The position numbers were made by a program. From a virus (lineage: Duplodnaviria > Heunggongvirae > Uroviricota > Caudoviricetes), in the IMG/VR virus record IMGVR_UViG_2531839027_000011: DNA of 16,154 nt. The stretch is one strand, 5' to 3'. Positions 9,001-15,000 of this stretch are shown piece by piece; the stretch's first letter is position 1, and each line of letters starts with the position of its first letter.

Positions 9001-12000
9001 ACCAAGTCCCTGCAACGCCTGAAGGCCGATGTTATTGCGACCTGAACGCTCCATTTCGTTGTTCTGGCGAATATAGGCCAACGCCTCACTTACATCACTT
9101 GCCTTTGGCGCATTTGAGTTTTGCCCACCGATACCAGCAAGAAAACCGCCTGAGTTGATTCCTTGTTGCCAAGTAGCCATATTCCCACCTTAAAACAATG
9201 ATCCAAGACCACCGATAACACCGCCAGCAAGAGCACCAATACCAGTCCCAATAACAGGAACTGCACTACCAATCATTGCACCTGATGCGGCCCCACCAAT
9301 GGCACCTGTAGCAAAACTCTGTAGGCCTGAAGGCTTATTCGCATTTGCTGCCGATGCTGCCGCCTGCTGTTGATACAATTGGCTGACATTGTTAGCGTAG
9401 TTCTGTCCGGCGTTTGCCTGACCTGTAAGAGCACCAAGGCCGATATTTGCCAGATTGTTGTAGTTGTTCATCTGACCTGACAGCCAGTTTTGACCGAGTG
9501 TAGGTGCGATTGCTGCTAACTGGTTTCCTGTTGCTGTAGAGCCTAATCCACCCGTTGCCTCTGCTGCTGCCAGACTCTGATAGCGCGCCTGCCCTGCAAG
9601 GTCTTTATACTGCTGAGAGTTGTAATACTGGTTAAGCGCCTGACCTTGCCCCTGAAGAGAGGAAAGATTCTGCAACTGTGATACGTACTGCTGAGCGAGT
9701 GGCGTGAACGGTGCAAGGTTTTGCATGTTCGTCTGCCACATTTCACGCTGCAGTTCGATGCCCTTTTCAGTTGCGCGTGCCTGGGCTTTAGATCCGGAGT
9801 CGCTGCCGCCTTTCATATACCCATTCATGGGAAGCAATTTATTCTTGAAGCTTTCGCTAAGTACTAACATTTAATAGCTCCTCATATTTCGAACGAGGTA
9901 ATTGATAGAGGGTGATTCCTACCGGTTTTCCGTTACTCATGTACGCATCATCAAGGTGACCAACACGGGTAGCGCCAAGCAAACGGATAATTGCCCGTCC
10001 GTATTTGGTGGTGTCAGGAACCATGGTGATGCTGTTAAGGAATGGTGAGTTTTCGAGAAGCCATTTGCAGAATAATCGATGCCCTTGTAGTGCATATTCG
10101 CCACGGAATCCGGGGTCATACACCGCATGGCATTCAACAACGCTATGCCAGAAGTTACGCACTTCATGAACTCCAGCCAGCACTAATCCTTCGTAGATGC
10201 CGAGATATACCGCATCAGGCTTGATGTAGTATTTATCTCCACTGTCTACGATATTCCCCGTGTTTACCGGGTTGTTAAGGAATTCTGCAAGTTTCACCGG
10301 GTTATCGATGAGCTTTATTTCCATCACTGCTCCGCAATGATTTTGATGGTTGTGGCAGTAAACGCCGCGCCATTCGACTGAATGGTTAACGTGCTGCCAT
10401 TTGTGGCAAGAAAGCCGTCTTTATCCACGCTGAAGAACGTAGCTAACAGGATGTTGTCGGTTGTTGTTGCCGAGTTGCGACTGCTTACTAGCGTGTCAGG
10501 AACAGAACCGGAGAATGTTAGCTGCATTGACCTGTTGGCGGTTCCGCTGGGCCACGTCCCGACAATCGACAGCTTGAAGAACAAGGTTTTGTTCTCGTTG
10601 AACACAACCATCTTGTTGTTAACGGTGTCGAAGAATGGTGCCAACGTCCCGGATGACGGCGTAAGCGTTTTCAGCAGGCTAACAAGGTTGGTCGGCGCTG
10701 TCGGGATGGTTACTGATACGCCAGAGTAAACAACCTCTGACTTCTTGCGCGTAGTGGCATACTCCAGAGCATTAATGCGCGTTTCATGGTCTGAAACCTG
10801 CGATTCCAGCGACTGAACTCTGGTATCAAGCGATGCAATATCGCTTTCATTCAAGGCAATCAGTGGGTTTACGTCATGGAGTGGGCTCAACACCAGTCAG
10901 AGCCGCATGTACACGCAATAATCATGGTGAACGAAAGAAGCATTAATGGGCAAGCTGGCAAAATTGTCAGCAAATGGGTAACACTGGCAAACAATGCAAT
11001 CCCATCAAATGTTCCTCCCCAGTGGGATCTAGATTTGAAAGGTCAGCAATATTCAGAGCCTACAAAGTGTATAGGTAAACAGATTGATTACATGGCAAAG
11101 CCCGAAACTAAGTTAAATGACTTTAATAGAGAGGCGAGCAAGAGCCTATATGATTGGTCAGATGCCAACGTTTGGGGTTATTCGAATGGCTGGGCGCGGC
11201 ATGAGATAAAAAAAGAAACACTTTCTATCACTGGCTTTCATGCTGTAAGACGCATACTAAAAGCCGTTCAGGCATCAAGGAAAGACAACTACAAAGCTAA
11301 GCGACAGATACAGCGTACATTGAAACGACAAGACATAAATCGATCACCAATCACCCCGTTCCAAGCACCGTTAATTAGCAAACACGATTGGGATTTATCA
11401 GTGATAGCGGTCACCAAAGAGGCAGAGACAGAGCGCAGGGAATTACTATCCTCACAGATAATAAACTCGAACAAAGTACAAACCCACCCACTGTTAAGGA
11501 TGTTAAGAAGAGCACGAGTGAGAGCATCCAGAGCCAAAAGAGAAAGCGGAGGTTATGACCATTACTACTAGTAGTGACAGATCGTGACAAGGCGGTGCAA
11601 AAAACGACCAATAATAAGAGAGATATGCCTGCCAAACCGCCAAAAGCGCGGAGCGCGGCAAACGCCGCGAGAGGCGCAAGAAGGCGAACCTATCCATTGA
11701 AACGGTCAGAAGCGCATCGCGCTCGACGACCGAAGTCCCCACTAACACCGTTAACGAAAGATCAAAGTCTTAGAAAAAAATGACGTTTCTTTGATGGACT
11801 TCCATCCGTAAAAATCAAATTTTGAGAAAAAGTACTTATAGAAATTAATCGCTCTATAAGGATAAGTTGACGTTAGTTTAAAGTGATAAAACATTAAAGA
11901 AAAAACGTAAAATCAAATACATAAAATAAGTCACCAAGGGATCATTTTCAGAAAACAACGTCAACGTAACGTCAACTCTGTAAGAACTTTTTTGGTCACT

Positions 12001-15000
12001 TTTTGGGTTGAATGTACGTAAAAATCCCCAGCAGTGAAATTTGAGCGCGTAAGCACAATTCTGAGGGGCTTTTTGTCTGTAGGTTAGGCAGTGTAACTAA
12101 CAATACAAGAAGTTAGCTCTGACTAACTATTTAATTAACTTTTCAATCTAATTGCGTTAGATATTATACCCTAACGCAATATTTTTAATTCAATAATGTC
12201 TGTAAATTGTTATTACTTATAATTATACATTTAACTATATCTACATTGGCTGCTTCCAATTACTACTTACGTAACGGAATCTCGGATCCTCTGTTTTTGG
12301 CTCGGTATAATAAGAATCATCAATAGTAAAGTTCGACGCTAATTTATCCCGAAGCCCACCTAAACGTTCAATGCTTGTTAGTTCGTTAGTAACATCCTTG
12401 AAAACGGTAGAAAATGCTTTATGTTGTTTAGACTTCATAAATTCAGGAGTGCTCAGTGCAAACTCTTTATCAGGCAAACCTGGAATACCCACGAGTCCTG
12501 TCAATGAATTTATACATTTTATCAAAAAACTGCCTTGAATACCTTGATTTGATGGAACACCGTAGCTTCGTTTAATATCTCCAGATATTTTATCTAAATC
12601 ACTTAGTAATTTTGTTACTTTTTTATTTCCTGCACTTATCCCCGATTCATCGTAGGTCACATGAATCTCTCGGATTACATCTCGACACGTACGAAAATGA
12701 TCATGTGTTCTAAGCTCTAAAGCTGAATTGATAACTTGAGAGACATTTCCTGTTTCGTTTGCTAGCCATGCAGAAAATATTGGTAAATCTAATGAAATAG
12801 TAGATGTGCGTCCATGATCTACAATTTCAGATCTTGCAGTACTGATTTTATCAGACAACGATTGCACCAACCTTGCAGTATAATCATGACCAAAAGCACC
12901 TGTTTTTTTCATCCAATGCAATTGATATGCATGCCTTATTGGATGAATAAATGAGTCTGCTTTAAAATGCTTAGCAATGACGCTGTAATAAATAGATTTA
13001 TATGCCAACCAATTTAGCGATGCGATAAACATTTCAAGTGAACGAGTCATACCTCCTTTACCGCGAGTAGATTTTTCCCTTTCTAGTTCAAATTCACGCT
13101 CAGTATATTCATGTCCAGATGAACTCACTAGCTTCACATCGGTTGACCAGTACCCTTTCGTATCAGAAGCATCTGATAATTCATTAAAAATCGATGCACT
13201 TAGTTCACTATATTTCGCATATTCAGGAGTACCGGGCTGACCAAGCATTTTCATTGTTAAGTAATACACGCTAGACCGAAGATCCCATGTGCAAATCATA
13301 TTCAGCTTAAGCATCTCTACAAGTTGCCTAAAATCATCGTCAACAAACTCCCCACCTCTAATTTCGGAAGTAATTTGCCGAGATTCAACTTGTGCTAACT
13401 GATCAAGTTCACTGAGTTGAAAATCACTTTCAGATACAAATTTAATAAAGTCAAATTTAGCAATGCGTTTATCTCTATATTCTTTTTTATAATTATCTAC
13501 ACAGATCAGGGTATCGTAAAAAAGTATCGCTTGAATAAGATTTTCAAAAGCGACTAAATCTCCGTTAATAGTATCTGGATTCTTAACAAGAATATCACCC
13601 AGTGTTCTTTCGACTGCTGTTAACGAAGCATTATCAATCAACGCATAAGACATTAAACTACCTCCATTAGATAATATCTAATAACATTATATTTCAATTA
13701 GGTTTAAAAATTGTGATACTTATGACAGATTTGAGTGACATTTTATCAATCTACTGATTTTGATGGTGAAATTTATTAGAAGGTATGCGTAGTGCTACGG
13801 GAGAAATGAGAAACGCGCCCAGCAATGGCGCATCCTTTCTTAAGCAAGTTGGCTAGTATCTATAGCATCCATCCAATCAGGAGCAATTCCCAAACGTTCC
13901 GCGAACTCTTCATTGGTCACGTCTTCCATTGAGAGACTAGCCAGACAATCGTTAATTTCAGAATAGACGGGGGAAAGTAATAGGTATTCCCGCAACTCTT
14001 TCAGGTCTTTTTCCATCTTAACACTCCTTGTTAATAGACCGTCGAACAATGGTACAGATTTGTACCATTCCAAGTACTGGCAAGCAACCCCACCAGCACA
14101 ACAAATTATCTCATACGGTAAAAACGGTGTCGGGCTGTTTCTTTCGGCTAGCTCAATATATCACCTTAAACACCAGCCGTTATCATTGTCTCAATTGGGT
14201 ATACCGTAATGACAAGGTGATACAAAGTCTCAATAGGGTTGTATAGGAACATTTTGACTACACAAACTGCATTATGTATCATTTGCACTTATATTCACAA
14301 CCCTTTTGAGACAATGCAATGAACGTTAGAATTTACTGCCGAGCATCAACTGAGGGGCAACACGCTGATCGAGCACTTACCAGCCTACGTGAATTTTCAA
14401 AATCAAAAGGCTGGCAGATTGCAGGAGAGTATATAGAAAATGCTAGCGGGGCGAAGCTTGAGCGCGTAGAGCTTATGCGGCTATTGTCTGAAGCCCAGTC
14501 CGGCGATCTGTTGCTAGTGGAAGCTATAGATCGTCTGAGTCGCCTAGAACATAGTGCATGGGTCGAACTGAAAGATACGCTCAACCGAAAAGGGTTAATC
14601 ATCGTATCAATGGATTTACCAACGAGCTGGCAGATGGTCGAGATGGCAGGCAATGATCTAACCAGCGGCATCCTGAGAGCCGTAAATGCCATGTTGATTG
14701 ATATCCTTGCCACAATGGCACGGCAGGATTACGAAACACGCCGTAAACGCCAACAGCAAGGCATTGAACGAGCTAAAAGCGAAGGCATATACATTGGGAG
14801 GGCGAAAAATCAGGAAGCCCGAGAGATCGTTAGAGAGATGTTGGAGCAAGGAGTAAAACCTGAACTCATCATGAAGGCAGCAGGAATCAGCCGAGCGACT
14901 TACTACCGGATAAAAAACGAGCTATTGATCGTAAAATCAGAATAAAATTTGAAAGGTCGTCAGGCTTGTTTCATCAGGTAAAAACCAGCATTTCTGATCA

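Follow-up and report, generated by a model that had tools for sequence, protein, structure and literature searches.

We analyzed a DNA stretch of 16,154 nt filed in IMG/VR as a tailed-phage record (IMGVR_UViG_2531839027_000011; hereafter called the window), to which E. coli O157:H7 chromosomes are 100% identical. Three features on its plus strand are the subject of this work, i.e., the 5′-truncated gene of an HUH rolling-circle initiator (Rep; 10853–11571), a GC-rich non-coding spacer (11572–11757), and a conserved non-coding module (approximately 11758–12078). We read this region as a Rep remnant together with its orphan origin module, a combined statement to which we assign a probability of about 0.7. 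The locus as a whole is most likely the right half of a decayed, integrated plasmid-like island at the tRNA gene argW. A preliminary description, made from the sequence alone, had suspected the remnant of a rolling-circle replicon, and this suspicion is now supported by full-length Reps, a Pfam family, a structural model with an HUH fold, and a module that is co-inherited with rep. Gene order along the window was taken from the PGAP annotation of strain TR01.

A truncated rep gene at a prophage junction

The open reading frame (ORF) that represents the gene extends over 10876–11571 on the plus strand and encodes 231 aa from an ATG at 10876, with the PGAP start at 10924. Its N-terminus reads MEWAQHQSEPHVHAII and contains P-H-V-H-A-I-I at residues 10–16, followed by D-Y-M-A-K, the tyrosine of which (Y72) lies 59–61 residues after the two histidines. 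The H-V-H-A-I-I sequence (residues 11–16) and the Y-M-A-K about 60 residues further on, from which a Rep had been proposed, are thus located as described before. No in-frame ATG, GTG, or TTG codon was found upstream of the ORF before a stop at ~10790. The preceding DNA is the antisense strand of a tail-needle gene, so that motif I and a Shine–Dalgarno sequence are absent, as the preliminary description had remarked.

A protein search returned a full-length protein of 350 aa with 97% identity across the whole window ORF, which aligns from residue 120 of this protein onward; at the DNA level, the gene remnant (10853–11571) corresponds to codons ~113–350. Homology to the tail needle of phage Kapi1 stops at 10852 and homology to intact rep starts at 10853. 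The position 10852/10853 is a clean illegitimate junction of two truncated genes on opposite strands, which confirms the suspected 5′ truncation. This fossil arrangement is present in ~310 complete genomes, mostly of O157:H7 among those listed. The ORF had no Pfam match (E up to 1) and no NCBIfam family, PADLOC gave nothing useful, and in PHROGs it fell into an unannotated family only. It is because of the truncation that the window copy lacks motif I and fails the Pfam threshold.

The Rep family and its predicted fold

The full-length locus is present in 225 complete E. coli genomes, where PGAP names the product “rolling circle replication-associated protein”, and Klebsiella homologs comprise 324–347 aa with 55% identity. 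An exhaustive search of 1.84 billion representative proteins returned just 21 clusters, so the Rep sequence family is narrow. The intact homologs that were to be sought on plasmids or ssDNA phages were found in part: distant ones reside on plasmids of 5–6 kb, and tblastn of the Rep against 50,697 phage records gave no match.

We aligned 22 family members with identities down to ~20%. Invariant columns were G80, T86, E121, P129, H130, H132, W153, Q177, Y191, K194, and W225. Motif I of the relatives is the stretch G-x-P-Y-x-F-T-L (PY-F-T-L/F) with the invariant residues G80 and T86; it is present in the full-length proteins and missing in the window ORF. Motif II (HUH; P129, H130, and H132 invariant) and motif III (YxxK; Y191 and K194 invariant) are both retained in the window ORF, and Y191 is the sole invariant tyrosine of the family. 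Judged by the alignment, the order motif I, HUH, YxxK is the classical layout of rolling-circle initiators with one putative catalytic tyrosine. A profile search against Rep families was unsuccessful with the window ORF alone and successful with its full-length relatives, as all 22 members matched REP_ORF2-G2P (PF23343) in Pfam at E up to 0.01. The full-length protein P0001 reached 29.7 bits against a curated cut-off of 27.8, and P0007, P0010, and the plasmid Rep of L009 were slightly under this cut-off (24.7–27.3 bits).

An AlphaFold model built from the 22-sequence alignment had a mean predicted local distance difference test score (pLDDT) of 74, with 80–96 in the core, compared to a pLDDT of 42 from an earlier 13-sequence alignment. 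The model contains the HUH nuclease fold, with a sheet carrying the HUH motif and a helix carrying the tyrosine, and the structure prediction suggested at the outset therefore came out in favor of a Rep. HUH nucleases were the best structural matches, and Rep/HUH proteins lead the list, including the Helraiser transposase (7.1), RepB of pMV158 (7.0), AAV5 Rep (7.0), a circovirus Rep (6.6), and IS608/REP-type TnpA proteins (6.5). Interspersed among them are ribosomal protein S6 and further ferredoxin-like folds, which this class of fold would lead one to expect. Foldseek searches against viral models retrieved ORF2/G2P-domain proteins and microvirus replication initiators. A sequence search of solved structures returned nothing, be it with the single protein or with the 22-sequence profile. 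The C-terminus of the family is formed by a conserved basic helical region of ~120 residues.

Three elements of the model are missing from the window product, i.e., the strand 81–87 (motif I), the helix 95–111, and the strand 115–121. As the product starts at residue 120, three core elements of the HUH fold are gone and an active nuclease is very unlikely; based on the model, the Rep fragment is almost certainly inactive. We hold with high confidence that the ORF and its region are the remnant of an HUH Rep. An IS91/ISCR or Helitron transposon was considered and rejected in view of the single invariant tyrosine, the lack of a helicase, the attachment (att) repeats at argW, the integrase, and the free plasmids. 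The Helitron_like_N family gave a weak match in only 4 of the 22 members.

A conserved non-coding module downstream of rep

The AT-rich stretch noted earlier is indeed gene-free, and it is longer than stated, covering 11572–12240 (GC content of 0.31–0.40 over 11600–12200). A basic ORF of 69 aa within it (11574–11783) was rejected as a gene, since a 94%-identical element carries frame-shifting indels of 1 bp and 2 bp there, and PGAP leaves it uncalled. The stretch begins with the GC-rich spacer, which was delimited by homology and folds and holds two short perfect hairpins on the plus strand, CGCGGC-AAAC-GCCGCG (11654–11669) and, in E. coli, AGCGC-ATC-GCGCT (11711–11723). GC stems with a 3-nt loop recur at the same place with other sequences, namely GGCGC-TCC-GCGCC in the plasmids described below, GCCGCC-AGA-GGCGGC in a third lineage, and GCGCC-GGA-GGCGC directly after rep in Klebsiella. 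As single-stranded DNA, 11572–11860 folds better than its shuffles (z = −3.3).

The module follows, with limits set by homology boundaries and cross-element alignment. Read along the plus strand, its conserved blocks are AAAGTCTTAGAAAA (11764–11777; conserved as AAAGTCYTAGAAAA(AAA)), TTTGATGGACTTCC (11790–11803; consensus TTCnGAAGGGCaTCC, slightly degenerate in O157), CGTAAAAATC (11807–11816), CTTATA (11835–11840), GTTGACGTT (11866–11874), AACGTCAACGTAACGTCAAC (11957–11976; holding CAACGTAAsGTCAA), and a second CGTAAAAATC (12017–12026; conserved as CCGTAaAAATC at 12016–12026), and a T-rich block is conserved as well. The 8-mer TTGACGTT at 11867–11874 is common to the window and some plasmids, and a variable patch with CGTAAAATC occupies 11906–11914. 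The most conserved parts, i.e., AAAGTCYTAGAAAA, TTCnGAAGGGC, CTTATA, and the upstream GC hairpins, had not been part of the preliminary description. As a further observation, the plus strand carries a strong excess of A over T (AT skew of 0.3–0.41) over 11200–12000, a range that takes in the module together with the 3′ end of rep.

Comparison between elements delimits the module and ties it to rep. The 94%-identical element, which carries other cargo, is homologous over 10853–12078 and not beyond. In a Klebsiella island, the same ~300 bp are placed after the cargo (12868–13160 of L003); cargo can therefore lie on either side, and the orientation of the module is kept. The module is alignable across E. 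coli, Klebsiella, and the plasmids despite a Rep identity of 25–29%, and AAAGTCYTAGAAAA is found once per element, in Rep sense and downstream of rep, in 10 of 10 elements. Scanning of metagenome contigs with the two-block pattern AAAGTCYTAGAAAA-N10-20-GAAGGGC yielded 39 loci, of which 24 have a Rep of the family 100–300 nt upstream on the same strand; the genome-contig scan yielded two loci only. In a 17-mer scan of viral contigs, most matches lacked a Rep and look like chance. Rep-bearing IMG/VR matches are mostly prophage-region calls from isolate genomes and so provide no evidence of encapsidation. By these sequence comparisons, the non-coding stretch is a backbone element tied to Rep. It has the properties of a cis-acting site that lies beside rep and is inherited with it, and we consider it probable that the module is the replication origin of this Rep.

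The repeats that had first drawn attention to this region belong to the conserved module in part. We estimated chance occurrence from 1000 dinucleotide shuffles of 11784–12240. Three CGTAAAA(A)TC repeats at a spacing of about 100 bp had been described, and their positions are correct, with CGTAAAAATC at 11807 and 12017, CGTAAAATC at 11906, and spacings of 99 and 111 bp. Of these, the first and the third belong to conserved blocks. The middle one falls into a patch of which roughly half has diverged already in the 94% relative, where this copy is not conserved. Any 7-mer occurred three times on one strand in 71 of the 1000 shuffles, and the CGTAAAA triplet alone is therefore weak and at most suggestive. 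The three copies of AACGTCAAC are likewise present, two on the plus strand at 11957 and 11968 and one on the minus strand at 11866. Across elements, the tandem is kept as CAACGTAAsGTCAA (a CAACGTAAC/GGTCAA tandem), and the inverted copy is partly kept. A GC-containing 9-mer with three copies on either strand was seen in 1/1000 shuffles and a perfect inverted repeat of at least 10 bp in 16/1000; the AACGTCAAC set and the hairpin are thus unlikely to have arisen by chance.

This hairpin, a perfect 10-bp inverted repeat (ATTGCGTTAG/CTAACGCAAT) with arms at 12151–12160 and 12171–12180, had been counted as part of an origin-like architecture. It exists as described; its position is outside the conserved module, in the cargo-side spacer (12079–12240) beyond the end of backbone homology at 12078. 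Each island relative has one inverted repeat with the 8-mer pair TTGCGTTA/TAACGCAA, differing in arm order and spacing (12151–12180 in the window, 11149–11168 in L007, 11506–11523 in L019, and 13606–13632 in L003), and the pair was not found in the plasmid relatives. Hairpin loops measure 10 nt in O157, 2 nt in E. coli MIN14, and 4 nt in Klebsiella, where the TTGCGTTA repeat is at another place, upstream of the recombinase. In MIN14, a T-run comes after the hairpin on the cargo strand, and in the window TATTTTTAATT comes after it on the plus strand, so that the hairpin probably terminates or regulates transcription where the Rep and cargo units converge. The hairpin at 12151–12180 is therefore probably a terminator or operator at the border between backbone and cargo and not a core feature of an origin. 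What is left of the origin-like architecture proposed earlier is the conserved, Rep-linked module, with neither the middle repeat nor the hairpin being deeply conserved.

Intact argW islands and small plasmids with the same backbone

The intact island of MIN14 (~10.3 kb) shows what has been lost in the window. Its left part comprises argW, an integrase of 428 aa, a gene of 251 aa that shares 8 nt with the end of the integrase gene, and AlpA, followed by a 63-aa ORF, a 64-aa helix-turn-helix protein, a 128-aa protein, and the Rep of 350 aa. To the right follow ~790 bp without genes, two cargo genes and a 58-aa ORF (all on the minus strand), the serine recombinase, the right attachment site (attR), and dsdC. 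A Klebsiella argW island has the same layout with a 55%-identical Rep and other cargo, and its right end is 93% identical to 14182–15105 of the window. The window keeps the island from Rep codon ~113 to attR, and the integrase and AlpA of the left end are missing. In total, 566 of 5426 complete E. coli genomes (~1 in 10) carry the element or a fragment of it.

Cargo beside the module is unrelated in each lineage (12241–13653 in the window, 11327–12766 in L003, and 11292–14746 in L007). One Klebsiella cargo gene matches the PADLOC candidate defense family PDC-M68A and HNH effectors. No defense or Pfam family was found for the MIN14 cargo proteins (330 aa and 821 aa) or for the 470-aa protein of O157, and the cargo proteins of both are candidates for novel defense genes.

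Further broken forms of the island were observed. In the metagenome contig L019 (10515–11320), the 5′ end of the integrase is fused straight to the module; the Rep C-terminus is joined to the N-terminus of a Rad52-family protein in P0006 and to that of an integrase in P0011. All of these forms arose from the same island by independent decay; its left half was lost repeatedly, with module, cargo, and recombinase persisting.

Searching plasmids by tblastn identified 25–29%-identical Reps on 16 plasmid records, many of which are circular Klebsiella plasmids of 5.3–6.3 kb without a typed replicon and typed as non-mobilizable. They encode, in this order, a 68-aa DNA-binding protein, a 126-aa protein, Rep, the non-coding module, cargo, a small ORF (minus strand), a serine recombinase, and a MerR-like helix-turn-helix protein. 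Neither another replication gene nor an Rfam replication RNA was found on these small plasmids, and Rfam gave no replication-control RNA for the window. The 126-aa protein is 39% identical to the 128-aa protein of the island, and the plasmid serine recombinase is 45% identical to that of the window. A small minus-strand ORF before the recombinase keeps its position in the islands of E. coli and Klebsiella as well as in the plasmids, with no sequence similarity between the plasmid ORF and that of the window (13840–14073). The same Rep was also found on circular metagenome contigs (terminal overlaps) of 5.4–6.3 kb and on one of 10.3 kb. Given the shared backbone order and the related genes, the island looks like a plasmid backbone to which an integrase–AlpA module was added.

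Two plasmid records deserve mention in their own right. L012 (NZ_CP141860.1; 12,132 bp) is an exact head-to-tail dimer of 2 × 6066 bp with all genes repeated at +6066, and represents either an assembly artefact or a real multimer, the latter fitting rolling-circle replication. L015 (NC_032098.1, pEC4365; 15.7 kb) is a small Rep plasmid (compare L008, 5657 bp) that acquired Tn4401 with blaKPC-2. The transposon is inserted at approximately Rep codon 60; an internal Met codon lies near the insertion, so the HUH domain could still be made. This suggests that the N-terminal ~55 residues of Rep may be dispensable.

The argW hotspot and its layered elements

The integration site is argW itself, a tRNA-Arg(CCT) gene detected by ARAGORN at 6476–6550 (plus strand). 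The 16-nt att core TTCGATTCCTGCAGGG at its 3′ end (6528–6543, plus strand) is repeated directly at the right end of the island (15080–15095, plus strand), and all DNA between the two copies is therefore integrated. Left of argW, lambdoid prophage genes close with an integrase (5111–6355, minus strand; PGAP). To its right, a Kapi1/Sf6/P22-like prophage remnant with genes on both strands (6676–10852; assigned by PGAP, Pfam, and Kapi1 homology) takes the place of the left half of the island. It comprises an intS-type integrase (6676–7869, plus strand; PGAP) and, on the minus strand, P22/Sf6-type ejection genes (8044–9180 and 9190–9870), a DUF2824 gene (9857–10327), and a tail-needle knob gene lacking its N-terminus (10324–10852/10860), which PGAP lists as a pseudogene; the minus-strand genes were assigned by PGAP and Pfam. 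The two tyrosine integrases (5111–6355 and 6676–7869) differ from each other and point away from argW on both sides, and the same lambdoid integrase is found beside argW in contig L019. The argW hotspot thus carries at least three layered elements.

Within the prophage remnant, the ORF 8044–9180 is chimeric. Residues 12–217 match the P22 injectosome translocase and residues 230–343 the C-terminal end of an Acyl_transf_3 membrane acyltransferase, and the GC content drops to 0.27–0.35 at 8000–8600. This is probably a further deletion scar, at which a fragment of an O-antigen acetylase was joined to an ejection gene.

Downstream of the module, the variable cargo slot is occupied by a gene for 470 aa (12241–13653, minus strand; GC content of ~0.35). 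Its only match is PHROG 13435 (function unknown); no Pfam, NCBIfam, or PADLOC family and no match in phage genomes was found. It is followed by the small ORF already mentioned (13840–14073, minus strand), which PGAP calls with 58 aa at 13840–14016 and which takes the same place upstream of the recombinase in islands and plasmids. The resolvase/invertase-type serine recombinase (14319–14945, plus strand; 208 aa; Pfam Resolvase, 2.2e-23) belongs to the backbone of the element. Beyond attR, we found a DUF4942 fragment (15281–15463) and, from 15543 onward on the minus strand, an oligosaccharide transporter of the major facilitator superfamily from the sucrose (csc) cluster, annotated by PGAP as a pseudogene with an internal stop.

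Discussion

Homology to full-length initiators, the exact truncation point, motifs, fold, island architecture, and conservation of the module in linkage with Rep together carry the reading of this locus as a Rep remnant with its orphan origin. Several points weigh against it. The window ORF has no Pfam match of its own, and its assignment relies on full-length relatives. Nicking and replication from the module are themselves inferred; a nick site could not be assigned in the module, and a small inverted repeat around AAAGTCYTAG shows no compensatory or double-sided changes. A conserved hairpin at this position was hence rejected, as covariation gives no support. Several of the repeats are palindromic sites of the TTGAC/GTCAA type and could just as well be bound by a repressor or copy-control protein. 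Cargo of 1.7 kb separates the GC hairpin from the AAAGTC block in the Klebsiella island, and the two therefore need not act together. Lastly, ~15 of the 39 loci with the two-block pattern lack a Rep, which by a rough estimate is about the number expected from chance and short contigs.

Some of these points lead to the strongest alternative, namely that the AT-rich stretch is regulatory intergenic DNA with promoters, helix-turn-helix operators, and terminators, and that the origin lies elsewhere or inside rep. The palindromic, operator-like TTGAC/GTCAA repeats would fit, as would the terminator- or operator-like hairpin at 12151–12180, with the cargo-strand T-run after its MIN14 counterpart, and the lack of covariation in support of a nick hairpin. 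Regulatory DNA of this kind would, however, hardly retain blocks of 14–17 nt that are identical at a Rep identity of 25–29% and fixed in orientation and distance downstream of rep, nor keep its position and orientation when the cargo switches side. Moreover, the plasmids offer few other non-coding candidates for an origin. We therefore regard this alternative as unlikely.

It is even less likely that the Rep is a mobilization relaxase and the module an origin of transfer, in which case the island would be a mobilizable element using a conjugative helper. Relaxases and Reps share the HUH fold, P0001 has a weak match to the MobA/VirD2 relaxase nuclease domain (E of 0.005, below threshold), and Int–AlpA islands mobilized by plasmids exist (PIMEs). 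Reps have the HUH motif before the tyrosine and relaxases have the tyrosine first; the family, with HUH first and the tyrosine ~60 residues later, follows the order of Reps. In addition, all 22 members match a Rep family, the best structural matches are Reps, and the plasmids of 5–6 kb are typed as non-mobilizable and contain no other candidate replication gene or RNA.

A res site of the serine recombinase of the element is a very improbable identity for the module. In favor of it, the recombinase gene belongs to the backbone and is inherited together with Rep and the module, and res sites contain several repeated subsites. Such sites are usually located directly upstream of the recombinase gene, whereas the module is 2.2 kb away from it with cargo in between and always stands beside rep; the DNA immediately before the recombinase gene (14182–14318) is a conserved non-coding stretch of its own. 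A chance occurrence of the ORF and the repeats, in junk DNA left at the scar of a prophage deletion, could cite the CGTAAAA triplet in 71/1000 shuffles and the missing Pfam match of the window ORF; it can practically be dismissed, since dozens of independent elements contain homologous full-length Reps and modules.

With the module taken as the probable origin of a rolling-circle Rep, the most likely life cycle can be outlined. In intact islands (MIN14 and Klebsiella), Int, assisted by the product of the overlapping gene and by AlpA, would excise a circle of ~10 kb. The 350-aa HUH Rep would then bind the module just 3′ of its own gene and nick one strand, with His130 and His132 holding the metal and Tyr191 becoming joined to the 5′ end, and host polymerase and helicase would carry out rolling-circle synthesis. 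The GC hairpins, the TTGAC-type repeats, and the rest of the module may serve recognition and possibly lagging-strand priming, and multimers would presumably be resolved by the serine recombinase. The slot beside the module carries exchangeable cargo, part of which consists of candidate anti-phage genes. In O157:H7, an illegitimate deletion joined the Kapi1/Sf6-type prophage remnant to Rep codon ~113. Lost with it were the integrase of the island, AlpA, the small genes for DNA-binding proteins, and a third of Rep at the N-terminal end, and the origin module, cargo, recombinase, and attR were left as a fossil. The element can neither excise with its own integrase nor start replication, and its module would be an orphan origin responsive only to a Rep given in trans.

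In motifs and fold, the Rep resembles the HUH initiators of Pfam REP_ORF2-G2P, with an F-T-L-T-like motif I, HUH, a single YxxK tyrosine, and the HUH fold in the model. It differs from these and from the microvirus initiators in its location on plasmids and islands without phage structural genes nearby, in the very small size of its family, and in the ~120-residue basic helical C-terminal region. Rolling-circle plasmids of the pC194/pUB110, pMV158, and pT181 types are similarly small (here 5.3–6.3 kb) and likewise combine a single HUH Rep with an adjoining non-coding origin (a candidate origin here), RepB of pMV158 is among the structural matches, and the CTTATA block may resemble the nick motif CTTGATA. 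Their Rep sequence family is a different one and the hosts here are Enterobacteriaceae; the backbone described here additionally contains two or three small genes for DNA-binding proteins and one for a serine recombinase. pSAM2-type elements of actinomycetes and filamentous prophages with HUH Reps are integrative and replicate by rolling circle after excision. Such elements share with our island the combination of a tRNA-gene integration module with a rolling-circle Rep and its (here probable) origin, and the occurrence of integrated and free circular forms. Compared by description only, the island differs from them in its P4/CP4-57-type integrase with AlpA, its other Rep family, and the lack of FtsK-like transfer or virion genes.

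A parallel in gene order is found in PICMI, phage satellites of Vibrionaceae with 6–10 kb that comprise an integrase, an overlapping gene, AlpA, a replication gene, and variable defense-type cargo (PMC10803314), and for which concatemers formed by plasmid-like rolling circle have been reported (PMC10803314). PICMI have a DUF3987/DUF5906 primase in place of the HUH Rep and integrate next to fis and not at argW (PMC10803314). Unlike PICMI, the E. coli island has no known helper phage, induction, or packaging, and the window copy lost integrase and AlpA. Membership of the window in PICMI/PICI-type satellites was accordingly rejected, with integrase and AlpA absent and an HUH Rep, not a primase, as the replication gene. 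EcCIMP1, a PICI mobilized by Kapi1, was considered on account of the Kapi1-like prophage remnant next to the island and proved to be distinct (tRNA-Thr, primase, 20 kb). PIMEs, which carry repA and trbJ/trbL, are different elements as well.

The Rep nature of the full-length gene is already reflected in its PGAP name. Full-text searches of open-access papers found no description of the island, its Rep family, or its plasmids; to the extent of these searches, the architecture of the island, its candidate origin module, and the link to small Klebsiella plasmids are undescribed. We tentatively suggest, as one possibility that may well prove wrong, that the intact relatives form an undescribed family of minimal argW-integrating islands of Enterobacteriaceae, which would be the integrated form of cryptic 5–6 kb rolling-circle plasmids with a PICMI-like front of integrase, overlapping gene, and AlpA and swappable defense cargo next to the origin, acting as phage satellites or as defense carriers that amplify themselves upon induction through rolling-circle replication by the HUH Rep. 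In that case, the chromosome of the O157:H7 lineage would hold an orphan origin open to nicking by the Rep of a relative that enters the cell.

With the module recognized, a Rep family annotated by name only gains a concrete candidate origin. Furthermore, cryptic small Klebsiella plasmids, one of which acquired Tn4401/KPC-2, become linked to chromosomal islands with variable, partly defense-like cargo. The O157:H7 locus itself is a dead remnant with a practical use as a lineage marker, and it exemplifies how the argW hotspot is rebuilt via deletions between tandem elements.

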